A stretch of DNA of 64,000 nt, taken from contig OZ210885.1 in the NCBI GenBank assembly GCA_964658305.1, positions 4,278,001 to 4,342,000 of the forward strand. The letters are read 5' to 3'. Below the pieces are notes generated by a model. The model was given only the letters and a program-made list of their open reading frames with translations, ran no database searches and was not told the DNA's origin. Source of the stretch: Leptogorgia sarmentosa (Eukaryota). The position numbers and the translations under genes are program-made. This document shows, in pieces, positions 27,501-55,593 of this stretch (position 1 is its first letter; every line of letters begins with the position of its first letter).

Positions 27501-28395
27501 CACACACTAGCCCAAGAACATGAAGAAATTATTAAAAACCTCAAAAATGCAGAAAAGTCCAAAGATCAACACAACATGCTCGACACAGAAATAACTGAAC
27601 ATGAAATACGCGCCACAGCACTGAGATTAAAATTAAATAAAGCTGCATATTCAGACAGAATAAAAAATGAAATGATAAAATTTAGCTCAGACATTTTAAT
27701 CCAGGCATATACTAAGATGTTTAACATGATTATGAACTCTGGAACTTTCCCAACATTATGGAGCGAAGGACTCATCACCCCTAATTTTAAGTCAGGCAGT
27801 AAACAAGATCCCAATAACTACAGAGGAATTTGTGTATCAAGCTGCCTAGGAAAATTTTTCTGTTCAATTCTCCATAATAGGCTAATGCTTTTTACAAAGC
27901 AAGAAAATAGCATCCACCCCTCACAAATAGGCTTCATGCCAGGTAACAGAACAGCTGATCACATATTAACCTTAAAAACACTGCATGACAAATATGTTAA
28001 ACAACAAAACAATGAAAAAATATATGCTTGTTTTGTAGACTTCAGGAAAGCTCTTGACTCTATATGGCATAATGGACTATTCTTAAAATTATTAGAAAAC
28101 AAAATAGGTGGAAGGTTCTACGACTTGATTAAAAACTTGTACACAAATACGAAATGTGCAGTTAAAATCACAGATCATAGAACCTCCTTCTTCTCATACA
28201 GTAAAGGAGTTCGTCAGGGTTGTGTATTACGCCCAATACTATTTAATCTATATATTAATGAACTGCCAAAATTATTTGAAAAAACTATTTCTGATCCCTT
28301 CGTACTACCAAATAGCACCACAATAAGCAGTCTTCTATACGCCGATGATTTGGTTATAATATCAAGATCAAAAAATGGTCTACAAAATTGTTTAA

Positions 28396-29863: not shown

Positions 29864-30858
29864 TTAAATACGCTTAACACATGGAGCAAAAAATGGTTAT
29901 TAGAAATAAATTTAAAAAAAACTAAAGTCATGATTCTACAAAAACACAAATCTAAACCACAAAACATTCAATTCAATATTGGAAATAAACTAGTTGATAT
30001 CACAGATGAATATACATATCTAGGAATGAAATTAACACCCAATACAAAATTTGAAATAGCTAACCAACAACTAAGCGAAAAAGCAACACATGCACTATAC
30101 ACAATTTGCAAACGGATCGGTTTCCATCATCTACCACCCAAGTAAGGATGTAGAATCTTTGACAACGTAATCTCCCCGATATTGCTTTATAACTCAGAGG
30201 TATGGGGAGCATATTATGCTGACAATGACTTTCAAAAATGGGATAAAACTTGGACTGAAAAGACCCACCTTTATTACTGAGACATCAATAAATAGCATCA
30301 TCGAAAAGCTGAAAGACAACTACATCTCCGAATGGAAACAACAACTAAAAACTCACATTTTATAACAAATTCAAAAAACAGTATAAGTTAGAAGAATACT
30401 TAACCAGTATTAAAAACACCAACCAAAGAACGATGTACACAAAATTTAGAATAAGTAACCACAAATTATTAATTGAATGTGGCCGATATCAACAAATACC
30501 ACAAGAAAGAATATGTAAAAACTGCAACAGTGGCTCAGTTGAAAACGAATTTCACTTTGCCTTCGAATGTCAAAAATACCAAAACCTAAGAGAGAATTCA
30601 AACAACATTCTAAAAAATATTTTCCAGATGGAACTAACAGCGAATTCTGAACAAGATTTGCTAACTCACGTAATGGTCAATAATGACCAAGTGTTAGCAA
30701 ATCATTTTTCGAACTTCATATCGAAGTGCTTCACAGTCAGAGACATATCGCCTTGAAATGCCTTAATATTTACCACTTTTCTAAATTTAATATATTCACT
30801 AACAAACTAATCCACTTAGCTATAGACTATAAGAAAAAAAACAATTTATGAACTACTC

Positions 30859-31019
30859 AGTAGTACTATCCCGGCACTATAGCGCCTTCCCCCAGGCCCC
30901 CACGCGTGGACCGCTGCGCGGTCACGCGGGGGAAGGCGCTATATTCCCGATAGATATTCTCGCGTGTAGATATTCACGCGTGGATATTTCTCGAGAGTTT
31001 TGTTTGCGCGTGTTTTGCG
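30859..31019 (+). repeat. Polinton left TIR
   Basis: Exact reverse complement of 50830-50990; continues into degenerate TTTTGCGCG/TGTTTGCG repeats. Confidence 0.97.
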
Positions 31020-31202
31020 TGTTTGCGCGTTTTGTGTGTTTGCGCGTTTTGCGTTTTGCGCAGAAAGGAGAGTTTTTGGGATAGGATGTGTTTAGAATTG
31101 TAATTCTAAATTCTAAACATTTTTTGGTATTTATTAAAAATAATATTTTTAAAAATATACAAAGTGATCTTATAACAGTTTTAAAATAAAGAGTGTTTCA
31201 AC

Positions 31203-33133: not shown

Positions 33134-33297
33134 AATTAGTGAATTTTTGTAGTAAATTTTTATACAGTTTTATTGTATTTTTAAAATAGAGTTTTTAAAA
33201 TAGAGTAGTAAATTTTTATACAGTTTGCTGTATTTTAAAGTAGAATTTTACAAAGTAATAAATTGTTTTTATAATAATTTTGTTTGTGAGTTATTTT

Positions 33298-33560
33298 AAA
33301 AAAGGGGGCGGGAACCAGTTATTAAAAAGGGGGTGGGAACTAGTTATTAAAAAAGGGGGTGGGAACCAGTTATTAAAAAGGGGGTGGGAACTAGTTATTA
33401 AAAAAGGGGGTGGGAACTAGTTATTTAAAAAAGGGGGTGGGAACTAGTTATTAAAAAGGGGGTGGGAACTAGTTATTAAAAAGGGGGCGGGAACCAGTTA
33501 TTAAAAAGGGGGTGGGAACTAGTTATTAAAAAGGGGGTGGGAATCAATTATTAAAAAGGG
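33298..33560. repeat. G-rich tandem array, about 10 x 25-26 bp (AAAAAGGGGGTGGGAACTAGTTATT)
   Basis: Read directly from the sequence, upstream of pPolB. Confidence 0.95.
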
Positions 33561-33742
33561 AATAAATTAAAATAACCTATGGTTATTTTACTGAAAGAAT
33601 ATTGAAGTGTGGTTATTTTACCGAAAGAATATTGAACCCATGGTTATTGAACCTATGGTTATCAAAGTGTGGTTATTTTACCGCACGTTTGTAAGTATAT
33701 AAGTGTTTGAGTTTTTTGCTGAAATTATTTTTATGAGCGAGT

Positions 33743-36700
33743 ATGGAGTGGCAGTGGGAAGACACAAATGATGTGTGGGTTTACGAAGTACCCGATCCAC
33801 AAACGGAGATGCAATATAGCGAGTGGGATTGGGGAGATACGAACGACTCATGGATTTGGGAAGTACCCGACCCAAGAACCATTTTAACAGATGAGAGTGT
33901 TCAGTATGGTGGAAAAAAGAGAAAGGCTAATGATGATGAAGTCAGCACCGGAGGAGTTTTATACAATTAAAGAGGTGCGACAGGTAAAGGCCAAAAAGTA
34001 TCGAACGACAGCTGTGGATTACACCGTACACTTTAATGATTTGGAGGATCTTGATCTTGTTCGCGAGTATGAACGTACTCAAGAAATTTTTGAGCACTTA
34101 CTAATTGATGTTACGGGCGGAATGGAAGAAACCGATATGATTCGATTTGTTTTACGTACAGATCAATTAGACAAACCCATATCCTTACCGTTTATGCCCG
34201 TTTCTCGGTTAACCCCAGAACGTGTTTTTTCACAAATCGAACGCATTGTACAATCCAAACAAGAGCTACGATTAAACGAGTCAGCTATTATTGATATTAT
34301 TCATGTTGAAATGCCGAATGGTAGCGGACGGAAAAAGCGAAATGCTCTTGATTTACAGAGTTATTTGCACAACAAGAGGTCAATGGTTGTTATTAAGAAC
34401 AAAGACAATCTGTGTTTAGCGCGTGCATTGGTTGTTGCTATAGCGAAAGTCGATAAAGATAGCAGGTACAAGTACTTGGTGGACTCGCGTAAATCAGCGC
34501 AGACAAAAGCGGCAAAGGAGTTACACGAAAAAGCGGGGGTTCCATTGGGATCATGTGGAATAGCCGAGGTGAAGCAGTTTCAAAAGTACCTTAATGAGTA
34601 TGAGATAAACATTGTTTCAATGGATGCAGGAAATACAATCATTTATCCTTCACAACCTATCGAAAGGGAGGTAAAACGTGTTTACCTATACCTACATAAT
34701 AACCACTACGATGTTATTACGTCAATGCCTGGATTTTTAAAACGAAGCTATTTTTGTCATATGTGTCGGAAGTCGTATGATCATACTGTGGATCATTTAT
34801 GCGATAGCCAATGCAAAATGTGTCGTGGGTTGAATTGTTTGTGGGGTGATTCAAGAGATTGTTTGGATTGCAATAGAATGTTTAAGAGCCAGACGTGCTA
34901 TGACCGTCATAAGGAACCTATTGGTGGTGGTCAGTCTGTGTGTCAACAAGTAAAGGGATGTCCAAGATGCGGAAAATCTCTAAGAGTTCATCACTTACAA
35001 AATCACTTATGTTTGCAAACAAAATGTAAAACGTGCGAGAAGATCATTGACGATAAAGATACACATTATTGCTACATGACAAAACCTGAAAAGAAAAAGG
35101 GAAGTGAGAAGGAAAGTTACGATCAACTGTTTTTCTTTGACTACGAGTGTCGCCAAGAGAATGGTGTTCATGAACCAAACCTATGTATAGTCCATAACGA
35201 GCAGGGAGACGAGTGGTGTTTTTCCGGAGAGAGTACAAACGAGGATTTTTGTGAGTGGTTATTTACAAAGGAGCATAGAAATTGTGTGTTTCTAGCCCAC
35301 AACTTTCAGGGGTATGACCGTTACTTTATTCAAAACTTTCTAAGTAAAAATGGAGTGAAATATGATGTTATTATGAGCGGAGCTAAAATTATAACCCTGA
35401 AAGTTCCGATGTTTAACATACGATTTATTGACTCGTTAAATTTTATTCCAATGGGTCTTGCTAAATTTCCAAAGACATTCGGGTTGGATGAGTTACATAA
35501 AGGATACTTTCCTCATTTGTTTAACAAGAGGGAGAATGAAAGCTACGTTGGTCCTATTCCGTGTGAACCATATTATAATCCGAATGAGATGAGTCCTGGA
35601 AATCGTAAAGCGTTTCAAAAATGGCATAAAGAGCAAAGAGACAATAATGTTGTGTTTGATTTTGAGAAAGAGATTATCAAGTATTGTAGATCTGATGTGG
35701 ATATTTTAAGACGAAGTTGTATGGAGTTTCGTGAACTGTTTAGAGATAGCACAGACATTGATCCGTTTGAAAAGTGTTTGACAATTGCTAGTGCTTGTCA
35801 ACTGGTTTACCGCACTAACTTTTTAAAGGAAAACACAATTGCTATTTTTGATTCCAAACGGGATTTGAAAGTAAAGCAATCCAACACAGCAATAAAGTGG
35901 TTATCGTACGTATCCGAAAAAGAGGGTATATGTATTGAACATGTGAGAAATGGAGGGGAGAGGCGTGATGGCAAGTACTCCTTTGATGGGTATCACGAGG
36001 AGTCAAACACAGTGTATGAGTTTCAAGGGTGTTTTTGGCATGGTGAGTAAAACTTTTTTTGTATACATAGAGGGGTTTGTATACTTAAATATCTTTTTGT
36101 TTTAGGGTGTTTAACATGTTACACACGCAATACCGTAAACCATATAAACGGGAAAACTATGGAAGATCTTTATGTTGAAACAAAAAAGAAAGTTCAATAC
36201 TTGAAGGAGGCAGGTTATAATATTGTGGAGAAGTGGGAGTGCGATCTAAAAAAGGAGCTGAATGAAAACAAGGAAATGCGACGTCATTTTGAAGAGCACA
36301 GTTTAGTGGATCCTCTACAACCTCGCGAAGCATTTTTTGGTGGGCGTACAAATGCGGTAAAGTTGTTTCACCGGTGTGAGAACGGAGAAAGAATAAAGTA
36401 CGTGGATTTTACGAGTTTGTATCCGTGGTGTAACAAGTCAACACGAATGGTTGTGGGACACCCTGAAATCATTACCGAAAACTTTGAGGACATTTCAACA
36501 TACTTTGGTCTTATAAAGTGTACAGTGTTACCACCTCGTGGGTTGTTCCACCCTGTTTTACCCTATCGCACCCCGGGTAAATTAACCTTCCCGTTATGTA
36601 AAGCGTGTGTTGATTCCACTAACCAAAACACTTGCACCCACACGGATTTGGAGAGAGCTATTCTCGGTACCTGGTGTCATATTGAGTTGTTAAAAGCGTT

Positions 36701-37719
36701 AGAAAAGGGATATCAAATTTTACAACTACACGAAGTATGGCATTTTCCAAAACAGTCCGAAGGGCTGTTTAAGGGGTATGTGGATACCTTCCTAAAAATA
36801 AAACAAGAGGCCAGTGGTTATCCAAAAGACTGTACAACACCGGAACAGAAGCGAGCATATATTGATGAATACTTGGAACACGAGGGGATTGCCTTGGATC
36901 CTGAGAAGATTGCACACAATCCTGGTTTAAGGGCCTTATCTAAACTTATGTTAAATTCATTTTGGGGTAAGTGCACCGCCCACCGCAGAACCCCCACTCT
37001 CTATACTATATTCACTATGATTTTCTATTTTAGGTAAATTTGGTCAGAGGGGAAATTTGGGTAAGACCGAAATGATAACAGAACCACAGAAGTACTTCGA
37101 TCTTTTGACCTCTGATGAGTTTGAAGTGACAAATACCCGTATAGTTAGTGATAACATGGTTGAAGTGCAATACAAAAGCGCTACCGATTTTGAAGAACCA
37201 AACAGCAAGGCAAATGTGGTTGTGGCAGCTTTTACTACAGCGTATGCCCGTTTGAAACTGTACGATTTATTGGACATGCTACAGGAACGTGTGCTTTATT
37301 ACGATACAGACTCGGTTATATACGTGTCAAAGCCTGATGAACCAGATCCCCCCTTGGGAAATTATCTTGGTGATTTGACTGATGAGTTGGATGGCGACCA
37401 TATCACTACGTTTATATCCGGGGGACCTAAGAACTATGCTTACCATACAGCCAATGGGAAGTCGGAGACAAAAGTGAGGGGAATTACCTTAAACCACACC
37501 ACACTGCAAAAGATAAATCCTGATGTTATCCGTTCACTTGTATACTTACATACAGAGTGTAACTCTCAAGCAAAAGTGACAATCGATATTCCGTTTAAAA
37601 TCACAAGGAACAGAAAAGAGAAAAACATAGTAACAAAGAGAATGAAAAAAGACTATCGAATTGTATATGATAAACGTGTTATTATTGACAATTATAGGAC
37701 GCTACCATACGGTTTTTAA
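33743..37719 (+). CDS. polB: Protein-primed family B DNA polymerase with Vsr-like insert; introns 36043-36105 and 36967-37033; probable N-terminal frameshift near 33948
   Basis: Exonuclease motifs FFDYEC, AHNFQGYD and YCRSDV; polymerase motifs YVDFTSLYP, KLMLNSFW|GKFGQ and YYDTDS; FQGCFWHG|CLTC is restored by splicing. Confidence 0.95.
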
Positions 37720-37763: not shown

Positions 37764-38126
37764 TTATTGTCTCTCTTTTGGTAACATATGACGATACTTA
37801 TCCGGACACTTTCCCCAAAAACCACCATCCTTTAGACTTGAATCCCCATACTTTGCGATTGTTCGTCTTAATTGTTCGCATTCAGGATGAGAGTTGACAC
37901 CCAGAGTGTAATAGTTTTCTTCCCAATGAATTTGCTCTCTCTTTATCATACGATGAAATAGTTGTGGTATGGAGTAAAAACCTTCAAAGAATCTATGTAT
38001 GTCATCATCTCCATTTACATAGTGCGTGTCTCCAGTTGTTTTGTTTGTGATAATAAAGTACATTCCATCACAGAAACACATCTTGTAAATGAGGTGAGTA
38101 AGGCAGCTCTCTCTCTTTATATACAC
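37764..38126 (-). CDS. Polinton hypothetical protein
   Basis: Open frame of about 105-120 aa, convergent with pPolB; no motif recognised. Confidence 0.5.
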   Translation of the reverse strand: MYIKRESCLTHLIYKMCFCDGMYFIITNKTTGDTHYVNGDDDIHRFFEGFYSIPQLFHRMIKREQIHWEENYYTLGVNSHPECEQLRRTIAKYGDSSLKDGGFWGKCPDKYRHMLPKERQ

Positions 38127-38251
38127 AATTTACATGCAGTTATTTTATGTGTGGTTATTTAACCTACACACAATTTACACACGGTTATTTTATGTGTGGT
38201 TAATCTTATATAAGGGTGTGATATTGATTACTTTTTCAGTATGTTTACAGT

Positions 38252-38814: not shown

Positions 38815-39435
38815 ATGGACGTAAGGTTTAAGTTACCTGCTAATTTTTACGTCTCGGGACAGAGTCAAAGTGGAAAATCGTTTTTTGTTCGTAAATTACT
38901 ACAACATTTAACATTGTTTAATCCTGTTCCTACAAAGATTATTTATTGCTATGGGGAGTATCAGAAAGAGTTTGCAGAATTGCAAAATGTGGAGTTGATC
39001 GAGGGATTTCCGTCAAATCTGAATGAGTTAACTCAAGGACATGACAATTCTCTTGTGGTATTGGATGATCTTATGGGGGAGTGTTCAAAAGATCATGTTT
39101 CCGACCTATTTACACGTGGATCTCATCATAAAGGCATTTCTGTACTATACCTTACACAGAACCTATTTCCTCTAGGAAAATTATCAAGAACCATTAGCTT
39201 AAATTGTCACTACATTATTGTCTTTAAAAATGCACGCGACTCTTTAGGGATTGCAACATTAGCTAAACAAATGTACCCGAGGCAAACTAACTACTTATTG
39301 GATTCCTTTCATGATGCCACAAAACAACCACATAGTTATTTACTTATTGATTGTCACCCTCAAACTCCTGAGAATTTACGATTACGTACCAACATTCTAC
39401 CTGGAGAAAGACAAATTGTGTATATAAAGAAGTGA
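38815..39435 (+). CDS. A32/FtsK-like genome packaging ATPase
   Basis: Walker A GQSQSGKS, Walker B VVLDD, FTRGSHH, LTQNLF and RTISLN. Confidence 0.93.
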   Translation: MDVRFKLPANFYVSGQSQSGKSFFVRKLLQHLTLFNPVPTKIIYCYGEYQKEFAELQNVELIEGFPSNLNELTQGHDNSLVVLDDLMGECSKDHVSDLFTRGSHHKGISVLYLTQNLFPLGKLSRTISLNCHYIIVFKNARDSLGIATLAKQMYPRQTNYLLDSFHDATKQPHSYLLIDCHPQTPENLRLRTNILPGERQIVYIKK

Positions 39436-39478: not shown

Positions 39479-40156
39479 ATGATATCAAGAAACATCACTG
39501 TATTTGTTACCGGTGGTACAAAAAAATTGACATTAAATGAACCTTTTTTAACACGAAATGATACAACAATACAGTTAAAACAGGCTACTGTTTTTTGGAA
39601 ATTCAAAAATGTTACATCTGCAAATAACAAATTTACAATTGATGGTGTGGAAAAAGAGATCGGTGTGGGATATTGGGATTTTGAACTTATTAAGGAGCGA
39701 TTAAAAGAGAGTAAAATTAATCTTACTGCTGTCATACCCAATAACACGTGCGACATTGAAAATAAAAACGGTAAAACCCTAAACTTAAAAAATCTTGGTC
39801 AACTAATTGGGTTTCCTGCTAACGAGAACATACCCCATGACACAGTCTTAAGATCACCAAATGCTGTTGACGTCAATCGTGGATTAAAATACCTAACAGT
39901 TACATGTGATCTTGCAAACCCGGAACGAAATGTTGACACGAATGGAAACACAAGTACAAACATTGCTTATCTACCCATCCCACCTGGTACACGTCTAAAT
40001 TCCTCTGTTTCCAGTTTTAACGAAAACCATCCAGTAGTTTCGCTTAAGGAAGACATTGTTACCGAAATGACATTTACCGTAACTCCAAACATTTCAAATG
40101 TTTCTGTGGATGTTGATGTGCTTCTTAATCTTGTTGTGAGTGGTATACATATGTAG
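39479..40156 (+). CDS. Putative minor capsid (penton-like) protein
   Basis: 225 aa, beta-rich; LGQLIGF...VDVNRGLKYLTVTCDL...IAYLPI resembles the LGF...D...l.v.cDiv pattern of Polinton pentons. Confidence 0.55.
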   Translation: MISRNITVFVTGGTKKLTLNEPFLTRNDTTIQLKQATVFWKFKNVTSANNKFTIDGVEKEIGVGYWDFELIKERLKESKINLTAVIPNNTCDIENKNGKTLNLKNLGQLIGFPANENIPHDTVLRSPNAVDVNRGLKYLTVTCDLANPERNVDTNGNTSTNIAYLPIPPGTRLNSSVSSFNENHPVVSLKEDIVTEMTFTVTPNISNVSVDVDVLLNLVVSGIHM

Positions 40157-40186
40157 TGCACGTAGCATATGTTACTCATTTATAGG

Positions 40187-40522
40187 ATGTCTTCGTATGT
40201 GAAAAGAACCCTACCGCTCCTTCAGACATTAGCAACATCAAAACCTGCACTGCGTAACGCCATCCTCCAGCACGCACCAAAGGATTTGATTAAAGCTATT
40301 TCTGAAATTATTTTAAACGTGCTTAAAGGGGCTATAAAAATATCCCCAAAACAAAAAAAGCGTCTAGCTCGTTACAAAAATCAACTACGCAGCCTTGCAA
40401 GTAACAGAGTAGCAGAGAAAGCAAAGAGAAGGTTTCTCACTCAAAAAGGTAGTGGGGGAGGTGCTGTCTTAGCGTCAGTACTTGTACCTTTAGCTATTGC
40501 AGCAATTACTGGTCGGGGATGA
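40187..40522 (+). CDS. Conserved small basic Polinton core protein (PW-like)
   Basis: AISEIILNVLKGAIKISPKQKKRLARYK...QKGSGG followed by a hydrophobic tail; a homologue lies at about 57070-57387. Confidence 0.8.
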   Translation: MSSYVKRTLPLLQTLATSKPALRNAILQHAPKDLIKAISEIILNVLKGAIKISPKQKKRLARYKNQLRSLASNRVAEKAKRRFLTQKGSGGGAVLASVLVPLAIAAITGRG

Positions 40523-41268
40523 AGCGTATGGTTTTGATTCCTGAAGAGAAACTTATTCAATATGAGCAACAAAAAGGGGGTGGAACACACCCGTATATAG
40601 ATATTACACCCTACACACCCTACACACCCTACACACCCAATACTGGACAGTATGGTTATGGGAAAAAAGAGGAGGAAAGGGAGTTATCAAATGATATTAT
40701 TGTTCGTGGAATTCCAAAGACTATGAAAAACAGAGCTACCGCCCTCTTAGAGCACCTAAAAACAAAACCTGATGCTATGGGACAAGTTACTATAAATGGA
40801 ACCCTCATACAAAAATCAAACATTTCGGATTTAGTTTCCAATGCTATGAGATCACGTAAAAACTTTAACCCTACAGGTTCAGAAGAGTTTTTTAGTGTGT
40901 TAAGTGACTTAAACGTGCCAAGAGATCTTGTAAGAAACGAGGGAAGCATGAATAATCGTAAACCAAAGCGAAAAGTCAACCAAAAGGGAGGAATTATAAG
41001 ATGGATGGATGATATGGCTGCAGGGATTGCCAAACTAGGGAAACCGGTTGTATACAAAGCAGCAGATTGGATGACAAAAAAGGAACTGGGTGAAGAAGGG
41101 TACAAAAAGTATAAAGCAAAAAGAGCGAAAAGAGAGAGAGCGAAAAGAGAGAAAGCAAGAAAAGCGAGAATAGCAAGAAGAGCAAGAATAGCGAGAGCAA
41201 AAAAACAAAAGGGTCGGGGAAAACAACAAGGGGAAAAAACACCTAAATGGGAGTGTTATAAAGGATAA
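40519..41268 (+). CDS. Conserved Polinton protein with Arg/Lys-rich C-terminus
   Basis: MKRMVLIP start (ATGA overlap), GQVTINGTLIQKSNISDLVS motif, homologue at 56631-57049, several QKGG motifs. Confidence 0.75.
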   Translation: MKRMVLIPEEKLIQYEQQKGGGTHPYIDITPYTPYTPYTPNTGQYGYGKKEEERELSNDIIVRGIPKTMKNRATALLEHLKTKPDAMGQVTINGTLIQKSNISDLVSNAMRSRKNFNPTGSEEFFSVLSDLNVPRDLVRNEGSMNNRKPKRKVNQKGGIIRWMDDMAAGIAKLGKPVVYKAADWMTKKELGEEGYKKYKAKRAKRERAKREKARKARIARRARIARAKKQKGRGKQQGEKTPKWECYKG

Positions 41269-41344
41269 CTTTTTTTTGTAAATAATTATTGTTGTTGTTG
41301 AAAAATGAATAAAACATTATTTGGAAAGTTGAATTTTTTATTTA

Positions 41345-41842
41345 AAGTAATCTTTTACAACATTGACTAAGTCCACAAATGGATTTGCTAGTAATATCAA
41401 AGTGTTTTTTAACATAACATTACGATCGTTAAACAAGGCATTATTTCCAAACATATTTACAATCTCACTCATATTACGTCCACAAGCTCTCTGATATAAG
41501 TAAAAAACACAATAGTGACCGCACACTTCAGTCCATGAACTTTGTAATTTTTTTTCGTGTATTATATTTCCATTCAACAGAATTAAAATAAGTTTTAAAA
41601 GATTTGTTATAATGTTCCGGGGGTTGTCCATAACTATCAAAAAATTCTCCAGTGTTGCGTGTGGGAAAGTAAAACACCACCCAATGTGTTCCAGGTTTTG
41701 TAGAGGGATCTGTATTAGCTACAAACCCACAAGGGAATGTGCTTAAGGATTTTGGTAACTGGTCGGCGGGAAACACACCACAAAATGTCTTTGATGTTTT
41801 TGAATTATGTTCCAAGGCACGTTCTATTTGTCGAGTATTCAT
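41345..41842 (-). pseudogene. Adenain-like cysteine protease, frameshifted
   Basis: NTDPSTKPGTHWVV, FFDSYG, then LQSSWTEVCGHYC in another frame. The shift falls in the A8 run at 41548-41555; a second probable shift lies near 41415. Confidence 0.9.
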
Positions 41843-43227
41843 GACGACATGTCATACATTACATTTCTGTCACCATCAATCTGTATAATATTTTCAAAAT
41901 CTCCGTAACACACAAGAGCAAGAGCTTCTGTTGGTGCTGTGGCAAATGTTATGTCAACTGTCAATGCACCGTGCTGTACAGCATTAAAATAGGGAGAAGA
42001 ACCACACATGTCGGGAGTTAAGTCAAAAGCATAGATGGTGTAACCTCTAGGATAATCTTCACGGGAAATATCAAGTCCTGTATTGTAATTCATTTTCCCT
42101 GTACCAGAGAACAAAGTACCATATGCCTGCATAAAATGCTCTTTATTATTTGTGTAATTCAAATTGAATTGTTTGAAAGGTAACTCCTCCCCATTTACTG
42201 TAAGTGTCACAGATGTTACACCATAATTTTTGAAATTAAATGGATTTGTTCCATAAGTTCCATTGAAAGCTGTGGCATCCACAAGACCAAAAACAAATGT
42301 TTTTGGTATTGTTCCTGTAAAAATGTTATCCTTCCTTATAGATGGAACATTTCCAGGTACAACAAATGATTTACACTCAACACGGCGTGTGGGGTAGATA
42401 GCAGGCATTCTTTTTAGTGCGGTTGTATGGGCTGCCTGAACAGCTTGACTCACACGAACTTTACGAACTTTAAGAATAACATCGGTCAACTTCACTTTGG
42501 CATTAATGGGGGTTGTGTTTTTATCTGTAAGACAAAATTGATCAGGGCTTCGGTTGAGAATCAATTTAACATTCACCCGATCCAACAAGAGACGATCGCT
42601 CATAAACGCATCAACAAAAACGGGTCCCTCCATTGTGAGAAGCTTTCCGTCACGTACAAGCTGATGTCTTTTAGCAAAACCTTGATTTCCGCTTCCTGGT
42701 GTCATAACTTTATGATCAGTACCCGATATGGTTAATGTTTTTTCTCCCGGAAGGCTTCCTGTATCATCCATTTTTCCCGGTGTGTCTTTGTAGTATAATG
42801 CAGACGTAAGCTGTGATTGTTTGGCGGTAACATCATAATTCAACAATGTTTCCAAATAGGCACGGTAAGGGTATGTTCCTATGGCAGGTGTTACTTGCTT
42901 TCCATTCATGTACACATCAACTTGTTTAAACATTGTGTGTAAAAAGTTGTTGACTGGGGCAATGTTTGATTGTGCTGCTCCATCCAAATCCGAGCCGTCA
43001 GCCTTTACCACTTTTCCCTCAACAACCAAAATTGTTTTAGATAAGTCAATATAGTCATCATCGCCCGTAACCAGAAATGTAATAGGACCGTCATCATTCT
43101 CAACACTTGAAAGGGGGTGGTACTCAATCCAACGACCTTTCTCCAAACTTGCTTGTGTAGGTGGAATGTTAAATAATTCAACCTCTGTTTTACCACAGCG
43201 TTTTGAGTTTTTGTGTACGTAATTCAT
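41839..43227 (-). CDS. Major capsid protein (double jelly-roll, PY)
   Basis: 462-aa intact frame: ELFNIPPTQ, NNFLHTMFKQVDVYMN, YPYRAYLETLLNY, NPFNF and YAFDLTPD. Confidence 0.95.
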   Translation of the reverse strand: MNYVHKNSKRCGKTEVELFNIPPTQASLEKGRWIEYHPLSSVENDDGPITFLVTGDDDYIDLSKTILVVEGKVVKADGSDLDGAAQSNIAPVNNFLHTMFKQVDVYMNGKQVTPAIGTYPYRAYLETLLNYDVTAKQSQLTSALYYKDTPGKMDDTGSLPGEKTLTISGTDHKVMTPGSGNQGFAKRHQLVRDGKLLTMEGPVFVDAFMSDRLLLDRVNVKLILNRSPDQFCLTDKNTTPINAKVKLTDVILKVRKVRVSQAVQAAHTTALKRMPAIYPTRRVECKSFVVPGNVPSIRKDNIFTGTIPKTFVFGLVDATAFNGTYGTNPFNFKNYGVTSVTLTVNGEELPFKQFNLNYTNNKEHFMQAYGTLFSGTGKMNYNTGLDISREDYPRGYTIYAFDLTPDMCGSSPYFNAVQHGALTVDITFATAPTEALALVCYGDFENIIQIDGDRNVMYDMSS

Positions 43228-43285: not shown

Positions 43286-43786
43286 TTAACCAAATATATC
43301 CTTTGCGGGTAAAGACTTTCTCTGTTTTGATCTCGGAAACACACCTTTACCATTTCTACGAACACCTTTTCTCTTTTTCCCACCCATTTGAAACATGGGG
43401 TCCAAATCACTCCAACTAGGTTCCCTCGCCTTACGTCCTTCGATAAAAAACCCACCCCCTTTTTGAGACTTTTTTGTTTTCTTTTTTGGTTTTTTCTTCT
43501 CTACCTTTGCACGTTTTGCTGGTTTGTCTTTCTCTTTTATAGCCTTTATAGTTCTTTTTCCCGCAAGATCTACTGATTGTATTGCAGCCTGTTTCCCACT
43601 TTCACGCGCTGCATTCTTCACGGATTTACCGTCAATTACACCAGCAACCATATTTTTTAACAACTCTCCACCCACTTCAACTCCAATCTTTCCTATTTCC
43701 CCCAAAACAGGTTTAAGTACATTTCCCACAGCTGAGACATTTTTACCACGAAATATACCCCCAACACCATATCCTGTTTGTGTCAT
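43286..43786 (-). CDS. Basic core/membrane-active Polinton protein
   Basis: QTGYGVGGIF, an amphipathic helix, a Lys-rich tail and a DIFG C-terminus; usual position upstream of MCP. Confidence 0.75.
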   Translation of the reverse strand: MTQTGYGVGGIFRGKNVSAVGNVLKPVLGEIGKIGVEVGGELLKNMVAGVIDGKSVKNAARESGKQAAIQSVDLAGKRTIKAIKEKDKPAKRAKVEKKKPKKKTKKSQKGGGFFIEGRKAREPSWSDLDPMFQMGGKKRKGVRRNGKGVFPRSKQRKSLPAKDIFG

Positions 43787-43933: not shown

Positions 43934-45010
43934 TTAAATATTTTTTAATTGAGATGCAGGTATCCATGAATTAAATTTCGCTGGATATCCCAACCATTTT
44001 ACAAAGTATTGCTCATTTTTACCTCTACCTTTCTTTTCTAAAATCTCCTCTACCTCATACACATCATCCTCCTTAATAACTTTTTGTAACTCCTCATTGT
44101 AAAATGTACCATCAAGCTCTTCATGATCATAGTCTTTTAGTTTATACACAGGTGGATGTCGAGGTATTTGTTTACTCACAGTAAAAATTTCTTTTGAAAA
44201 GTTGGGGAGGTATCCCTTTTCAAATTTACGCTTCATTTTACTTATACGTACTTGATCACCTATAGAGAACTTATACTTTACCCTTTTCTTACGTGCTGGG
44301 TGATCACCGTATAGAGTGTGCCACACCTCCTGTTCATTTTGTACTGTAACATTCACAGGTTTTTTCTTAATACTACGATGTTTACTATGATTATAGGAGT
44401 ATGCTAATTTTTCCAACATATCAATATATCTACGTGTTTTCTTAGCTGTAAAAAAGCGCCACATTTTTGTTTTTAATGTACGAATAAGGCGCTCAACAAC
44501 CGATGCTTTTGTTTCATTATAAGTGTTATAAAGTTGAATGTCCTCCTTTTTCATTAGTGCTTTAAAGGGTTTATTGAAAAACTCTGTTCCCTGATCTGTT
44601 TGAATTTTTTGTGGTTTTCGTCCTGACTCCAAAATCACTTTAAAAGCCTCTACCAATGCAGCTCCTGTTTTAGTTTTTAGGGGTATAATCCACGCATATT
44701 TTGAAAACACATCAATGCATACAAGTAAATATCGGTATCCGTCATTTTCACCAGACAAAGGCTGCATATCGGCTAAATCCATTTGCCATAACTCGTCAAT
44801 ACCACCAACAATAACACGATTTCGTTTAAATCTACGACGTGCTGGTTTATGTAGTGTATAAGTATCTTGACTCATTAACCACTTTTTAATTTTACCGCGC
44901 GATATATCAAACTTCCCATCTTTCTTTACGTCATTGTATAAACGTTCCACCCCACCAAATCCCCCTGATCGTTTTGGGTTATAGTAAACACTAGATAAGT
45001 ATTCTTCCAT
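43934..45010 (-). CDS. int: Retroviral-like DDE integrase with C-terminal chromodomain
   Basis: WQMDLAD, QTDQGTEF and VVERLIRT; chromodomain YEVEEIL...YFVKWLGYPAKFNSWIP; intact. Confidence 0.97.
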   Translation of the reverse strand: MEEYLSSVYYNPKRSGGFGGVERLYNDVKKDGKFDISRGKIKKWLMSQDTYTLHKPARRRFKRNRVIVGGIDELWQMDLADMQPLSGENDGYRYLLVCIDVFSKYAWIIPLKTKTGAALVEAFKVILESGRKPQKIQTDQGTEFFNKPFKALMKKEDIQLYNTYNETKASVVERLIRTLKTKMWRFFTAKKTRRYIDMLEKLAYSYNHSKHRSIKKKPVNVTVQNEQEVWHTLYGDHPARKKRVKYKFSIGDQVRISKMKRKFEKGYLPNFSKEIFTVSKQIPRHPPVYKLKDYDHEELDGTFYNEELQKVIKEDDVYEVEEILEKKGRGKNEQYFVKWLGYPAKFNSWIPASQLKNI

Positions 45011-45310: not shown

Positions 45311-46366
45311 TCACTTAAGTATTATCGTTCCAACGTAAGAACCAAGAAAATCTTGAAAGTCCATAATGTATCCATTTGTGTGTAATGCATTCCATATCTT
45401 CTCAACAATGGGTCTCTCTGTAATTATACCATATTTCTCAATCTCCTTTTTCATTACACTCATCTCAAACTCTGATAACTGTGCGCATAGTTTTGTGTAA
45501 AAATCCGAAGTTAAAAGATTAATGCGTCTTAAAGTGCGACCATAAAAAATATCGCGAAAGTCTAACTCAGTGTACAACATGTTTACCATATGAATATCGA
45601 GAAACAACTAAGATAGTTTATTCAGCTTTTACGGTTTTATTTGGAGGTCCAGAACCGCGCGGTCGTCCGCCTTTCACAACTTTATCACACCATGTGTCAT
45701 AATATTGATTGGTAAATCCATGTTTAAAGCAGGCATACCATATCCTCTCAATAATTCTTTTGTCTACGAACTCCATATAAATACCCCAGGCATTATCGGC
45801 CTCAAACTCACACAACTCTCTATTGGTTATGATGTCATTTTTACACAAATACTCAATAGGAATGCTTCCAAAAACTTTCTTAATATAGTCTGCCTGAGGT
45901 ATCTCAACGCGCATCACAATCTCTTCGTTCACGTAAAAATCCAGAATCGTCATTGTTGCTGCAATAAGGTAGAAATGATTTTTGTAATAAAGTTGCTTTG
46001 CTTTATATCAAAATTATTGTGGTTATTATATATGCAGTTTTAAAACTGGTAGTTAATTTACATGTTGTTATTTTATATGAGGTTTTAATACCTACGGTTA
46101 TACAGTTAATAGTGAACCACAAGTGTGTCAGGCCAAACACTAAAGGGTTGTCGAATGTATCCACATCTAAAACAACTATCCCAAATTCTTTTAACCATTA
46201 TTTTGTCCACATATATCGCATCCTCTGTCTCCTCATCGTAAATACAGTTCTCATCTAGCTCCTCATTTGGAATATTTTCACAAACTACGTTAGCAAAATT
46301 CACTCCACACATGTTGATACTTAATAAAATCTCCCCCTCTAGATAGAAGTCCAAATCAATTGTCAT
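45311..46366 (-). CDS. Three tandem small paralogous ORFs (45311-45607, 45618-45953, 46106-46366)
   Basis: Shared N-terminal LD[FI] and C-terminal VDKRIIERIWYACFKHGF / VDKIMVKRIWDSCFRCGY / TERPIVEKIWNALHTNGY. Confidence 0.7.
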
Positions 46367-46470
46367 CTTGACAGCTTATAGTAAAATGAATAGCTGTGCT
46401 AAATACAGACCCATATATATCATAAAACCCCTGTTTTTGTAACACTCTCTTTATTTACATTCCATACGTA

Positions 46471-48660
46471 ATGAAGAGAGGATATCCATATACAAGTGGT
46501 AACCTCAATTTTGGTTACGAATATGATTACAAACCAAAAACCTCTAAAAGTGGTGACGGTGGTGGTGGTGGGGGTGGTGATGGCACCCCGGGTCCGCGCG
46601 GGCCTACAGGACCTCAAGGACCTACAGGACCTAAAGGAGATAAGGGCGAAACGGGACACACCGGAAACGTAGGACCTCGTGGACCGCCTGGATCTAAAGG
46701 ACCTGTCGGGCCTAAAGGAGAAAAAGGAGATAAAGGGAATGATGGTATTCAGGGCCCTCCAGGCCCTACAGGACAGCAAGGACCTCGAGGAATACAGGGG
46801 CTAAGCGGAAACGACGGAGCCCGCGGGCGTGAGGGGCCTCAAGGACCTCGAGGGATTCCTGGTACGGCTGCCAACAAAGGAGATAAGGGAGACACCGGTG
46901 ATCAAGGACCCCCCGGATTGCAAGGAGCACAAGGACAGCGAGGACCCCCTGGACCTAATGGTGCTACGGGTTCACAAGGTCCTACAGGACCTAAAGGGAG
47001 TACGGGACAAACAGGTCCCCAAGGAAACCCAGGCCCCAAAGGAGCTAAAGGTGATCCTGGTCATACAGGAAACACAGGCCCTCGTGGTTTAACAGGTCCT
47101 GCTGGAAATACAGGCCCACAAGGTCCAATAGGTCCAAAAGGACCAAAAGGAGATAGAGGGGATAGAGGTCCCCCAGGAAGTGATGGTAATAACGGAGCTC
47201 AAGGCCCTCAGGGGCCTGCTGGACCTACAGGGCCTACAGGAAATCAGGGTCCTCAGGGATTACGTGGACATAAAGGTCCAAAAGGAGATCCGGGAAATCA
47301 AGGGCCTAAAGGAAATATAGGTCCTACAGGAAACACTGGAAACACAGGAGCTGAAGGTCCATCGGGACCTATGGGTCCAACAGGACCCACGGGAGCTCAA
47401 GGACCGCGTGGGATAAAAGGAACTAAAGGGGATAAAGGAGACAAAGGAGATAAAGGGGATACAGGTGTTTTTGACCCCACCACAAAAAAGCAGCTTATTT
47501 TAGTGAATAAAAACTTTCAAAACGTGACGTACCCCCCAGGCACTTTTCAATCCTTTGAGTTTGAAGATTCGGGTACAGAAGCACCCTGGAATAGTGGTTA
47601 TGGAACTAATCTCCAAGTATCAAAAAGTGCTACAACTGAAACTGTTCCAATTTTGGGTCCACGTGCTCCTATTGAAATAACCCAAGAGGTTAATACAAAG
47701 TATACGACAACAGAAATCTGGTTTTGTAATCTGTACAGTAATGCACAACCATTCGGAATGATATTTGCTACTGAGGATCCTAACAATAGTGCACTGAAAT
47801 CCATATCGACAAACATTGAAGATAGTGGAGGTCTGGCACAAAGCGCTCCCATGAAACATTTAGGAGCTGTGGTGGGGTACAATAATAAAACGTACAATTA
47901 CTATCTAGTATGGGTTTCAGCTAGTGTGAGTTTTAACAAAATTGAAGTTGGACTCGAATACTATAGTAACAAGTTAGCGGAGGGAAAAATGAGCCTAAAT
48001 GTTTACGGTGGATATACATTTGACAAAATATCCTTCAATCAGTACAACGAAGCAAATCTCACAAACAAACTCCACTTTCCCTATCACAAAGACTTTGAAA
48101 GACAAAAGGTTAGAGGTGTTATGGAGGGAAACACTCTTCTTACAGGATTCGAGCAGTCTGATGGAACTATTCTTGCAAATAACAATTTAAGAATATCTGA
48201 AGTAAACATACTACCTTATGCTCAATTACATATGGCAAAACTTACACTAAAATATGTCGAAAATACATTCGGTACTACTATAATGACCACCTCATATTAT
48301 ACATCACCCTCTCAATCAACTGGTGGGTGGTGTCACGCAAAAGAACCTGTCTCCGGATACCCCATGCCTACATATCCAATAGTGAGTGGGGACCCTTTAC
48401 GTATAACACTATTGACCCACACATTTGACACTGACAACACTATCAGTGCCGATTTTGAAGTAGAATTTCGTTTGACTCTACACTCAAACGCTACAACAAC
48501 AACATCCACACACTCCTTGGGTACAATAAAATACAAAGACAAGAAACAAACATCTGGTACTGCTGCCTACCCGTTAGTAGCGCCTGGAAAAAAATATCTC
48601 CTCAATCACATGTTTCTTTACACATACCATCAGGAGATCCTCCTATTGTTTACTCTTTAG
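46471..48660 (+). CDS. Collagen-like fibre/spike protein, 729 aa
   Basis: Short N-terminal tail, Gly linker, 98 in-register X-Y triplets at 46582-47463 (all Gly-X-Y except one Ala), then a Thr/Tyr-rich C-terminal region of about 400 aa; single intronless frame. Confidence 0.9.
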   Translation: MKRGYPYTSGNLNFGYEYDYKPKTSKSGDGGGGGGGDGTPGPRGPTGPQGPTGPKGDKGETGHTGNVGPRGPPGSKGPVGPKGEKGDKGNDGIQGPPGPTGQQGPRGIQGLSGNDGARGREGPQGPRGIPGTAANKGDKGDTGDQGPPGLQGAQGQRGPPGPNGATGSQGPTGPKGSTGQTGPQGNPGPKGAKGDPGHTGNTGPRGLTGPAGNTGPQGPIGPKGPKGDRGDRGPPGSDGNNGAQGPQGPAGPTGPTGNQGPQGLRGHKGPKGDPGNQGPKGNIGPTGNTGNTGAEGPSGPMGPTGPTGAQGPRGIKGTKGDKGDKGDKGDTGVFDPTTKKQLILVNKNFQNVTYPPGTFQSFEFEDSGTEAPWNSGYGTNLQVSKSATTETVPILGPRAPIEITQEVNTKYTTTEIWFCNLYSNAQPFGMIFATEDPNNSALKSISTNIEDSGGLAQSAPMKHLGAVVGYNNKTYNYYLVWVSASVSFNKIEVGLEYYSNKLAEGKMSLNVYGGYTFDKISFNQYNEANLTNKLHFPYHKDFERQKVRGVMEGNTLLTGFEQSDGTILANNNLRISEVNILPYAQLHMAKLTLKYVENTFGTTIMTTSYYTSPSQSTGGWCHAKEPVSGYPMPTYPIVSGDPLRITLLTHTFDTDNTISADFEVEFRLTLHSNATTTTSTHSLGTIKYKDKKQTSGTAAYPLVAPGKKYLLNHMFLYTYHQEILLLFTL

Positions 48661-48950
48661 AATTTAAGCAAGTAAAACCCACAACAAAAATTGGTAATGA
48701 ATCTGTTCTAACATTCAATGCTGTACAAATACCAGATTTATCAGGAATTTAATAAAAATGTTTAAAAAACTTTAATGTGTGTTTACAATATTTTACAAAT
48801 GTTTAAAAAAGTGTACATCCGGGTCCAAGAATAAATTCAGGTCCAGAAACATATGTAGAAAAAAACGGTGGTGTTCTCCATACTTCACCAATTTTCAAAG
48901 GCTTAACAAAAAGCTTTTCAGGTATCACTACACAAATTGTAAAAAACGCT

Positions 48951-49724: not shown

Positions 49725-49782
49725 CTGTAAAATGAAACAAAACAACAATTTAGTAAAGCTTAAATACTTAAAACCCGTAGGT

Positions 49783-49915
49783 TAAATAACCGCAAGAAGA
49801 CTAACCGCACGCAAAATAACCGCAAAAACACTAACCGCACGCAAAATAACCGCAAGAACGCTAACCACACGCAAAATAACCGTAAGAACGCTAACCGCAC
49901 GCAAAATAACCGCAC
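49783..49915. repeat. Tandem repeat, about 4.5 x 30 bp, of TAACCGC motifs in a divergent promoter region
   Basis: AAATAACCGCAAGAACGCTAACCGCACGCA units followed by a TATA-like TATTTAA at about 49926. Confidence 0.85.
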
Positions 49916-49950
49916 GTACAAAGACTATTTAAGAGCGTGTATGCGAGTTG

Positions 49951-50608: not shown

Positions 50609-50681
50609 CCCTGGTTAGCTCAATTGGTAGAGCCTCGGATTGTAGCTCCGAAGGTTGTTGGTTCGAGTCCAGCCCTGGGGA
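50609..50681 (+). tRNA. tRNA-Tyr(GTA)-like gene, intronless, inside the Polinton
   Basis: 73-nt cloverleaf: acceptor CCCTGGT/CCTGGGG+A, D arm GCTC-AATTGGTA-GAGC, anticodon arm TCGGA-TTGTAGC-TCCGA, T arm GTTGG-TTCGAGT-CCAGC; intact A and B boxes. Confidence 0.88.
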
Positions 50682-50829
50682 TTACTTATTACTGTTACTT
50701 ATTATAACACCCACAAATGCGCATGCGCAGTAAACTTACAAACACACAAAACACGTAAAACGCAAAACACACAAACACACAAAACACGTAAAACGCGCAA
50801 ACACGTAAAACGCGCAAACACGCAAAACG

Positions 50830-50990
50830 CGCAAAACACGCGCAAACAAAACTCTCGAGAAATATCCACGCGTGAATATCTACACGCGAGAATATCTATC
50901 GGGAATATAGCGCCTTCCCCCGCGTGACCGCGCAGCGGTCCACGCGTGGGGGCCTGGGGGAAGGCGCTATAGTGCCGGGATAGTACTACT
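50830..50990 (-). repeat. Polinton right TIR
   Basis: Reverse complement of 30859-31019. Confidence 0.97.
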
Positions 50991-51179
50991 CTACTCAGTA
51001 GTCATAATATAACTAATCACATTAATATCTTTTATTTTCTTCTTTGTTCTGTTACTATACTATCTTACTTATCTATATAGATAGTGCCACTACTTTGGCA
51101 ATACCTGTAAATTTAGGTCATGCTAATAAAGTATTTTGAAAAAAAAAACCCCAAAAAAACCCGGTACTTTTGGTTATCA

Positions 51180-51858
51180 TCTGGCTACAAATGTATCCTG
51201 AAGTGCATTGTTCATGATAAGTCCAACCACGATAGAGAGAGAAATCCGTTTTGTTCTACCAATGCTGTGGACTTACTTTAGAAACTTAGTTCAATGGCCT
51301 ACCCCTGAACAATGGATGGACATGGCTAATAATTGAGAATACTTCCCTGGCGGAGTAGCGGCAATTGATGGGACCAGACACGAGATACAACAACCTCAAA
51401 CAGAACCACAGCAGCAGTTCTATAGTGGACACTGCAGATATCACAATTTTTCCACACAAATTGTTATGGACAATAATGGCAGAATCGTATTTATTCAGTC
51501 TGCATTCCTCGGACACAATAACGATAGTGCTCAGCTGCAAATGATGCCCAGAGTTGGAGAGGAACTTCACTTGCCAGATGGCTTGTACATTTTAGCTGAC
51601 AAACGATACCCCTGCGAATACCCCATACTGACACCTTGGAGAGAACGACACATGGCTGGAAATAAACGTAGGGAACTATTTAATCTTGAACTAAAGAGAG
51701 TGAGAGTAAGGATAGAACATTGCATCAGACGTATAAAAGAATATGGAGCTGTGAACCGACTATGGCGGCATGATGTTGATATGCATGGTGGATGTTCCAT
51801 GCGGTATGCACAGTGGATGTTCCCTGTAGTTAATGAACTTTGCACATTCCTTGCTTAA
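51180..51858 (+). pseudogene. Harbinger-type DDE nuclease fragment
   Basis: AIDGT, GHNNDS, ILADKRYP and RVRIEHCI; in-frame stop. Confidence 0.8.
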
Positions 51859-53149: not shown

Positions 53150-53437
53150 TAGTAAAGCGTCCAGATATCTGGTTTGAGCATCCTGACAACCAAGGAAGAA
53201 ATTGAACAGCTGATTGGTATTCAAATGAGAATGGGTATTGTGACAATGCAGAGATACCAAAGCTTCTGGGCAACAGAAACAAGATATGGACCAGTTGCTG
53301 ATGTGATGAGTTTGAAATGGTATGAGAAATTAAGCCAATATTCGCATGCCAATGACAACGCCTTGATCAACACTCCAGAAAACAAGGGGAACAGGTTATA
53401 TAAAGCTGAACCAATACTGGTTCACAACACAAGCTGA
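53150..53437 (+). pseudogene. piggyBac transposase fragment
   Basis: EEIEQLIGIQMRMGIV...FWATETRYGPVADVMS...HANDN...RLYK. Confidence 0.7.
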
Positions 53438-53439
53438 CG

Positions 53440-55141
53440 CATGTGGCAAACATGAGCAATCCAAGATGGCTGCTCAACCGGCCAAACTAATAGGAGCTAG
53501 TATAGGAAAAACCATGTTTTTCGCATTTTACGATCCCATGCTGAAGGTTTTGGATGAAAATCGTGCAATTGGAATGGAATTAACCCCGAAATAAAGAAAT
53601 TTTATTAAGCAATTAATAAAATAAAGTTAATGAGGAAATGTTCTGCAAGATGTTTTTAGGTTTCGGCATAACAGGTGAGAAGCGGCAGGTTTGCATAATC
53701 CTATAATTAAGCTATCACTGTGTCAGATATACGCCAGGTCGGTTCCAAAGTGCAATCCCTCCACCATATTGCCAGTGCACTGAATAAGTTGTGACTTCAG
53801 CTCTCACCCAATCAAATTCCGAGTTTCCTTGGCGCGAAAAGCAACCAATCGCAGATCAAGCTAAATCACTTGTCCAAGCCAAAAGGCGCACACAAGCTGT
53901 TCGCCTTTCATATTGTATCCGAGTTTACTCAAGCCAACTCGTAACTCGGTGATCCAAAAAATTTTCTTCCCACCCACCCACCGCTTCCATGCACGTCAAC
54001 CCTAAAGCATTTTTCGTGCTTTCCATGACCATGGCGTATACCTGTCCCAAACAAACACGAACAGCTACTGTCTACATCTATACGGTTCCACCGGTCGCCT
54101 ATATTTCTATCGTGCAGGATTATGCACATACGAGATGTATACCATATGGATACACCTCTACATAACATATGGATTTTTAGTTTACAGCTATGGTAGGAAC
54201 ACTCGCACTTCACCAAGCACAGACTCGTGCAACGTGTCACTCATAGCCACACATACTGTATATCACGGACGTGAGGTATCACGCATCGCTTGTCTGTCAA
54301 TTATGATTATTGTTAGTTTCATATAGTCTAAAGGAAATATATCATTGGGTTCGGGGATGAAGCGCTACTTATTGTCACGTTCAAGCCCATAGACTCATGC
54401 TTAATTTATTGTAATTATACATCAGTTGAATCTCTAGGATTGTACAACTGTGTGTACAGTTGTTCAGATATAGGTGTTGTGAATCTAGCTATCTCCTGGG
54501 TATGCGCATGTGCGCATATCAAACGTTCTGTCGCGTGTGCGCTGAATGTATAGGACTGTGTGTACAGTGCATAGCTAGCTCGTTTGCAACATATTACATA
54601 TAAGCAATATATTACAATTTAATTGGTGTAATAGCGAGTCTTTGGGATGACGCTTGGCCTTATCTTTTACAATAAAACTTTACAGTGCTTCACCCCGAAA
54701 CCCCTTATCCCACAAAACTTGTGTGTGTGTGTTTTTCTTCTTGCGCATTGCGGAATTTCGCATGATTTCAATACAGAACAGCTTCAATCATTAATCGATT
54801 GTAAAGTGCTAACAAAAGCAGTCAAATTGTTCCTTCAAGACGTTTGAGCCTATCAACCGGTGAACTAAGTGACTGTTTTGGCAGCACTTTACGATCAATT
54901 ATTTCGATAATTCCATTTAAATTGCACAATTTTCATCCAAAACCTTCAGCACAGGTAGTTTTATTTCCAAAAAATGGTGCTAGAACGTGATCGGAAATGT
55001 TATGCGGTCGTAAAATGGGAAAAACATAGTTTTCCGTATACTAGCTCCTATTAATTTGACCGGTTGAGCAGCCATCTTGGATTTTAAAAAGTTGCCACAC
55101 ATTTTATATGGAGTCAGCAATCTAGGCTTCCTATATCTATG
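53440..55141. mobile_element. Inverted copy of the 8695-9249 MITE interrupted by about 1.2 kb of unrelated DNA
   Basis: 53440-53592 and 54790-55141 are reverse complements of the right and left parts of 8695-9249. Confidence 0.75.
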
Positions 55142-55593
55142 GGCATCACCTGGTGCAGCGTATCCACTTTTATTCCATGCTGTTCCAGTTGTGGAAAATT
55201 CTCCCAAACAGCCACAAACGGCATCTCTTCAAACGATTCTATGGCAAGGTAAAGTAATGCATCAGTTTTTCACATTGGGTTAAACAATGTATATGCTATT
55301 TTGATATTATCGGTCGTTTGTTTGCAGAACTTCCTCTCTTCCACAACCCATACAGTTCCTAATGCTGCTGACAACAGTTCTACATTTTTCAAATTAATTT
55401 GATAATTATTATACTATAAGACATATATTTGGAACTTTCGTTGGATTTCCTTTGCCAGTTTCCTCTGATAACAAGAAATTAATGAGTTATTATTGACAGC
55501 AAAAAGATCAAGAGGCTGAGAGCAAGATAATCTCTGGATTGTTATCAAATTAAATATAAATATATTGGTAATAAATATATAAATGCTTACAAC

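Follow-up and report, generated by a model that had tools for sequence, protein, structure and literature searches.

The combination of an N-terminal anchor, a collagen shaft and a head is already known among related viruses, and the protein described here shares features with several of the described systems. The Zamilon proteins Zav_1 and Zav_20 have an N-terminal anchor, a collagen shaft of variable length and a predicted beta-sandwich head, and have been proposed to form trimeric capsid fibres (10.1101/2023.01.23.525297). P5 of the tectiviruses PRD1 and PR772 is a trimer at the vertex with a collagen-like stalk and a jelly-roll knob (PMC6750898). Protist PLVs are described as having long fibre proteins built of modules, among them collagen, lectin-like domains and phage tail repeats, and in some cases avian adenovirus fibre N-domains (PMC12220804), and Ltf has been found in Gezel-14T particles (10.1101/2022.07.28.501842). 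Among animal Polintons, the stony-coral polintoviruses are reported to carry a collagen-like accessory gene (PMC11131425). Adenovirus fibres bind the penton through the N-terminal motif FNPVYPY, and how they deal with the 3:5 mismatch has been described (PMC8156859).

When vertebrate Mavericks were surveyed, their particles had yet to be observed (PMC8097293), and the adintovirus survey mentions no fibre of animal elements in its main text (PMC8502044). The word “collagen” is absent from the main texts of PMC8502044, PMC8097293, PMC11161782, 10.1101/2024.03.25.586562 and 10.64898/2026.10.13.758929. No description of the tail or head family reported below was found in main texts, while supplements, for example the coral Fig. 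S10, the PLV Fig. S6 and the adintovirus maps, may show one.

The gene described here is, with good probability, a frameshifted copy encoding a trimeric, capsid-anchored attachment fibre. Its protein has the layout of collagen-shafted viral fibres, namely an anchor, a collagen shaft and a C-terminal beta-sandwich (modelled), and is encoded in an element with likely capsid genes.

The element carrying the putative fibre gene

ORF, Pfam and repeat analysis of the whole 64,000-nt stretch of DNA (the window) places the fibre gene in a 20,132-bp Polinton with TIRs, a 6-bp TSD, a pPolB and an integrase (Table 1). Maverick marks include TIRs ending in (AGT)2/(ACT)2 and a 6-bp TSD (PMC8097293), and the element carries the marks of a Polinton/Maverick (adintovirus) in its TIR ends, 6-bp TSD, protein-primed PolB (in pieces) and rve integrase. 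The two gaps in pPolB (36043-36105 and 36967-37033) start with GTGAG and GTAAG and end with a pyrimidine tract plus AG, after which the frame resumes; on these signals they resemble spliceosomal introns. For intact vertebrate Mavericks a lack of introns is reported (PMC8097293), and introner-filled elements are known in dinoflagellates (10.1101/2025.03.18.643946).

The likely penton, ORF 39479, has a feature match in the atlas to the Sputnik V18/19 minor capsid cluster (0.96, with a recognition value under the tool's mark and the family on 44% of cluster members). Its nearest atlas cluster is 67% eukaryotic, the commonest group being Cnidaria with three records, and sequence and profile searches gave it no PDB or Pfam match. 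ORF 41839-43227, which from its general likeness is the likely major capsid protein, has no Pfam, PHROG, NCBIfam or PDB match, and none was found against phages either. Basic ORFs at 40169-41268 and 43286-43786 carry QxGG/QKGxG-like motifs, which we assume to be possible protease cleavage sites of core proteins.

Tandem arrays lie within the element at 33245-33588 and 49775-49924, with units of 25-27 and 15 bases, and the 15-base unit resembles, inverted, the repeats at 38120-38202; such arrays may be promoter elements. The flanks are ordinary repeat-rich eukaryotic DNA, with DDE_Tnp_4 transposases (6906-7658, 13569-14426 and 51466-51858), a LINE-like endonuclease and reverse transcriptase (26097-28421) and related inverted-repeat elements (8692-9252 and 53433-55142).

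Table 1. Features of the element and of the fibre gene, in window positions.
Feature	Position	Strand	Basis or remark
Left TSD, CTACTC	30853..30858		same hexamer at 50991-50996
Left TIR, starts AGTAGT	30859..31041	+	183 bp; 174/183 identical to right arm
pPolB, three ORFs split by two short GT..AG gaps	33891..37719	+	PF03175 E 3.8e-25, 3.1e-20
Likely packaging ATPase	38815..39435	+	Pox_A32 E 0.0057, weak, below cut-off
Likely penton (minor capsid protein)	39479..40156	+	189 homologues/353 candidates
Likely maturation protease, split across two frames	41338..41842	-	weak match to ASFV pS273R, E 0.045
Likely major capsid protein, 462 aa	41839..43227	-	position, size
rve integrase with chromodomain	43934..45010	-	PF00665 E 1.4e-13; PF00385 E 5.1e-10
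Tyr-rich tail at fibre N-terminus (aa 1-22), predicted to anchor it to the capsid	46471..46536	+	conservation in homologues
Predicted hinge: Lys/Ser/Gly linker containing Gly7 (aa 23-37)	46537..46581	+	Gly/Ser-rich, length variable in homologues
Collagen shaft, 99 triplets, kink at aa 130-137	46582..47472	+	Pfam; kink kept in homologues
Neck and proximal beta-sandwich, ~aa 335-515, CBM-like jelly roll predicted	47473..48015	+	model of P0002
Conserved linker, ~aa 516-580, repeatable unit	48016..48210	+	37-83% identical in homologues
In-frame part of the tip (distal) domain, a predicted jelly roll	48211..48621	+	model of P0050
Out-of-frame rest of tip domain, last two predicted strands	48624..48752	+	homologue ends match frame 3
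tRNA-Tyr(GTA) gene inside element	50609..50681	+	126 bases from right TIR
Right TIR, ends ACTACT	50808..50990	-	183 bp, inverted repeat
Right TSD, CTACTC	50991..50996		hexamer match to left TSD

Anatomy of the putative fibre gene

The sequence-only reading had described an intact, intronless gene for a protein with a Gly7 hinge, a 294-aa collagen shaft with one interruption, a C-terminal region of about 400 aa and no signal peptide. Most of this description stands. ORF 46471-48660 (plus strand) encodes 729 aa with neither an internal stop nor an intron, its N-terminal tail reads as had been quoted, and the Gly7 run lies at aa 30-36. The collagen covers aa 38-334 as 99 Gly-X-Y triplets (98, or 294 aa, without the last one, GVF), the sole Gly-to-Ala being at triplet 33 (aa 134), and is followed by 395 aa. 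The protein has no hydrophobic segment that could serve as a signal peptide, its best 19-aa Kyte-Doolittle mean being 0.86, and it contains only two Cys.

Collagen (PF01391, E 3.6e-46) is the only Pfam match of the ORF. The head has no sequence match in Pfam, PHROG, NCBIfam or the PDB, an atlas search with it gave no usable match, and its two domains show no internal sequence similarity to each other. Pro occupies the X position in 41/99 triplets and the Y position in 10/99, where Thr, Lys, Gln and Arg are abundant. Viral collagens are reported to favour Pro at X, whereas Pro is found at about 35% of Y positions in human collagens (PMC3368898). The lack of a signal peptide and the placement of Pro mostly at X thus fit an unsecreted viral collagen that is independent of hydroxyproline.

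A frameshift in the tip

What fails in the sequence-only reading is the intactness of the ORF, as a frameshift near 48620 moves the tip's two final predicted strands into another frame. The C-terminal 120 aa of all five homologues tested follow frame 1 to about 48621-48633 and then frame 3 to 48737-48749, and 48624-48749, read alone, is an open frame that resembles the homologue ends. When the ORF is aligned with seven homologues, its final ~12 aa fall out of alignment and it lacks some 40 conserved residues. A strict pattern for the GNES-type C-terminal motif is found in 31/39 records holding the distal domain; the remaining eight are the ORF itself, two records that are cut short and five with variants. 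In the P0002 model the two final strands come from this displaced part, and a damaged tip without these strands would be likely to misfold.

One 152-base contig of run X2, possibly the source sample, spans the break unchanged, which weakens assembly error as the cause, and contigs of X1, X2, X3 and X4 diverge from the window sequence at 48621. Because of this bridging contig and the divergence in four runs, the frameshift is likely to be real in the DNA and specific to one or a few copies, as far as can be judged from contigs. The likely protease (at ~41530) and the polymerase start (at ~33960) each continue in another frame as well, giving at least three apparent frameshifts in this copy despite TIRs that are 95% alike. 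Intact versions of the fibre exist in related elements. Given the damage to the fibre, apparently to the protease, and near the polymerase start, the infectious virion stage that the sequence-only reading had proposed is argued here for the family and not for this copy.

A modular family of homologues

Searching with the head recovered 7 clusters among 7,226 candidates (41-72% identity), a profile recovered 44 representatives, and the tail recovered 5/32 candidates. None of the homologues carries a name beyond “hypothetical”, and some records are incomplete, including P0011, P0015, P0027, P0201 and P0202. Locus searches with the fibre, penton and capsid gave no relative in viral_contigs, and none was found in metagenome_contigs.

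Conservation is highest in the 22-aa tail, which is 73-100% identical in 11 homologues, with 17/24 columns invariant across the 12 proteins. With the closest relative, P0002, set aside, identity is 30-50% in the proximal domain and 26-39% in complete type-A tips. The kink in the collagen is kept in 12/12 proteins while the lengths around it vary, from 86 to 120 aa before it and from 123 to 207 aa after it. Collagen length ranges from 69 to 100 triplets in the eight tail-bearing proteins that were counted.

Other parts of the protein are gained, repeated or exchanged. Ahead of the head and outside the collagen, a repeat in P0025, P0030 and P0032 has matches to phage tail-fibre families (PHROG 2710, E 2e-8 to 3e-9; PF03906, E 3.6e-6). 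We dropped the idea that this repeat replaces the collagen, as the cluster mates P0190, P0191 and P0195 have both. P0036 has three tandem copies of the conserved linker. Five homologues (P0031, P0032, P0041, P0043 and P0198) keep the proximal domain and/or the linker and carry a different distal domain of ~220 aa. These five alternative (type-B) distal domains are related to one another and unrelated to type A (hhalign probability 0.1%), and P0031, which bears one, also has the same tail and kink. In a tree of the shared module, built from 19 rows chosen because they contain it whole, a clade of 7 rows includes type A as well as type B, the latter on two branches; a fork in this clade is open, which bears on the number and direction of tip swaps.

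The distal domain of type A also occurs alone, as a 168-169-aa family (P0061, P0199 and P0200), of which P0061 starts with an NFGF motif like the core of the tail; from their sequences these proteins are possibly shaftless knobs. The first 190 aa of P0062 (816 aa, with a sub-threshold VRP1 match) weakly match the proximal profile (E 6.8e-5), possibly by chance.

Eleven of the 44 distinct record lengths of fibre homologues equal those of the 120 listed penton homologues, where 0.01 would be expected, and this coincidence is indirect evidence that the fibre and penton genes travel together. Over 46300-48900, contigs of runs X1-X5 are present in all identity bands (for X1, 56, 81, 118 and 79 contigs at 99+, 95-99, 90-95 and <90 identity), and their joints skip parts of the collagen. 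At the level of sequence, the fibre is a diverse multi-copy family with shaft-length variants.

Predicted folds

The model of P0002 (72% identical; pLDDT 62.5) contains two beta-sandwiches joined by a linker that is poorly predicted, with low pLDDT, as a monomer. Best matches of the proximal domain are carbohydrate-binding modules (TmCBM27, Z 9.5, rmsd 3.7, 155 aligned). The distal domain, modelled from P0050 (pLDDT 75; ~31% identical to the fibre segment), is a jelly roll with several matches that tie, namely CBM22 (Z 8.2), the projection domain of birnavirus VP2 (8.2-8.6), the STIV turret (7.3), PRD1 P5 (1yq8, Z 6.7, rmsd 3.6, 111 aligned, in the generic band) and TNF, C1q and BclA domains (6.0-6.5). 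Foldseek also lists C1q proteins of giant viruses. On the two-domain model, Foldseek matches have rmsd ~20 A and TM < 0.3 and serve as a pointer only.

Taken together, the matches fall among CBMs, CBM-bearing phage tail fibres, and spike or projection domains of viruses. These scores lie at or just above the generic beta-sandwich level (Z 7-8) with low TM-scores, and the models are of homologues rather than of the window protein; such middling values on predicted structures indicate no function. Adenovirus, reovirus and Zamilon knob structures are absent from the best 50 fold matches listed, which does not exclude them.

Proposed function and alternatives

The sequence-only reading had proposed a trimeric fibre with an anchor, a shaft and a head, and this part of it has gained from the Polinton context, the conserved tail, the variable shaft, the phage repeats, the exchange of tips and the predicted jelly rolls. 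Neither outcome that the sequence-only reading had named as refuting was seen, as Pfam gives no COLFI or C1q match and the gene occurs in many other copies. The 99 Gly-X-Y triplets would form a triple helix, making the protein a trimer. The conserved 22-residue tail is predicted to anchor this trimer to the capsid, the glycine run would act as a hinge, and the kinked collagen stalk would be ~85 nm long if triple-helical, at the reported 2.88 A per residue (PMC3368898). The two predicted jelly-roll domains would bind the surface of the host cell. It is the conserved short tail, the hinge, the stalk of free length and the exchangeable binding domains that argue for an attachment fibre. A location on the virion is probable; that the swappable tip chooses the receptor is a suggestion with about even chances, and sugar binding by the proximal domain is more tentative.

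Where on the virion the fibre sits is less certain, and we put anchoring on the penton rather than on the hexons at roughly one chance in two. It is rather unlikely, yet a serious alternative, that the fibre docks on capsomers of the major capsid protein or on another minor protein, a reading that differs from ours only in the docking site. The Zamilon collagen fibres have been proposed to sit on major capsid protein capsomers (10.1101/2023.01.23.525297), the tail here does not have the adenovirus motif, and the N-termini of P0030 and P0061 are shorter and of another kind. On the other hand, an extended Tyr-rich tail with a glycine hinge would seem to fit the adenovirus solution of the 3:5 problem better than the beta-prism anchor of Zamilon does. 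A complex prediction with four copies of ORF 39479 and fibre aa 1-30 scored 0.00, a value that is uninformative either way as it was obtained without alignments and with a peptide outside the calibration.

It is improbable that the protein is instead a non-structural accessory whose site of action is a helper giant virus or the interior of the infected cell, as a scaffold, a decoy or a means of adhesion to a helper particle. The collagen-like genes of coral Polintons are described as patchy (PMC11131425), and neither the adintovirus survey nor that of vertebrate Mavericks mentions collagen genes in its text (PMC8502044, PMC8097293), so that such a gene is not a core gene; phage tail-fibre repeats, a repeatable linker and tip exchange, however, typify attachment fibres. 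Capture of a host collagen (fibrillar, C1q-type or minicollagen) as cargo is very improbable and largely refuted, for although Mavericks are reported to carry host cargo genes (PMC11131425), the Gly-X-Y run in this eukaryotic genome is long and the distal fold is weakly C1q/TNF-like, the protein lacks a signal peptide and contains just two Cys, its gene is intronless, Pro at Y is at 10%, Pfam gives no COLFI or C1q match, and none of the 44 profile matches is named as a host collagen, those examined resembling element genes.

For the attachment fibre, the preferred reading, the conserved protein with its variable shaft and exchanged tips would be a trace of selection on cell attachment, which argues for an extracellular stage of the lineage, at present or in the recent past. 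Particles should then bear thin, kinked fibres of ~85 nm. The 22-aa tail offers a sensitive marker as well as a defined candidate for binding, and the two tip types can be compared for their ligands. We consider it conceivable, at somewhat less than even chances, that there is an animal Polinton lineage whose particles carry penton-anchored collagen fibres of 60-90 nm with their own Tyr-rich docking tail and exchangeable tips. If true, this would be a third way, beside adenovirus fibres and tectivirus P5, of seating a trimer where the capsid has five-fold symmetry, and would directly mark an infectious stage of animal Polintons that is autonomous and receptor-mediated.

Comparison with known systems

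The likeness to adenovirus that had been seen in the tail is not borne out. The best score of FNPVYPY in aa 1-28 is 16, which is reached by 9.2% of 20,000 shuffles (p 0.09) and also by 3.5% of 3,709 natural windows, and a search of aa 1-28 against the PDB gave no fibre match. Since this match is not significant, “adenovirus-like” is at most an analogy, and the protein is not a member of the adenovirus fibre family. The adenovirus fibre starts with MKR and shares this start with the protein here, along with spaced tyrosines, a short N-terminal tail, a long shaft and a C-terminal beta-sandwich. It differs in that the tail here contains no FNPVYPY, the shaft is Gly-X-Y with only Collagen detected by Pfam and no triple beta-spiral repeats, and the head consists of two domains. 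Their models are jelly rolls of middling Z, with no adenovirus knob among the fold matches listed. The predicted stalk of 85 nm compares with 33 nm for the HAdV-C5 fibre (PMC8156859).

No sequence homology of the anchor or head to a described collagen-shafted fibre was found in Pfam, PHROG, NCBIfam or the PDB. Zamilon Zav_1 and Zav_20 are described with a folded beta-prism anchor, 14-38 triplets and one head domain (10.1101/2023.01.23.525297), whereas the protein here has a 22-aa tail, 99 triplets and two head domains, and no sequence link between them was found. In tectivirus P5 the N-domain is folded and part of the penton base, and the collagen is ~17 residues long (PMC6750898). PLV fibres, including Ltf, frequently terminate in a Peptidase_S74 chaperone or contain domains of the laminin G3 or avian adenovirus fibre type (PMC12220804; 10.1101/2022.07.28.501842); none of these domains was detected by Pfam in the fibre here, whose host is likely an animal. 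The coral collagen-like genes are a low-frequency annotation, given in the main text without architecture or function (PMC11131425), and are set beside the fibre by description only. What is new here, in a copy that is itself damaged, is a family of fibres from Polintons of likely animal hosts, in which the anchor motif is distinct, the kinked stalk of collagen is very long and the tips have been exchanged.
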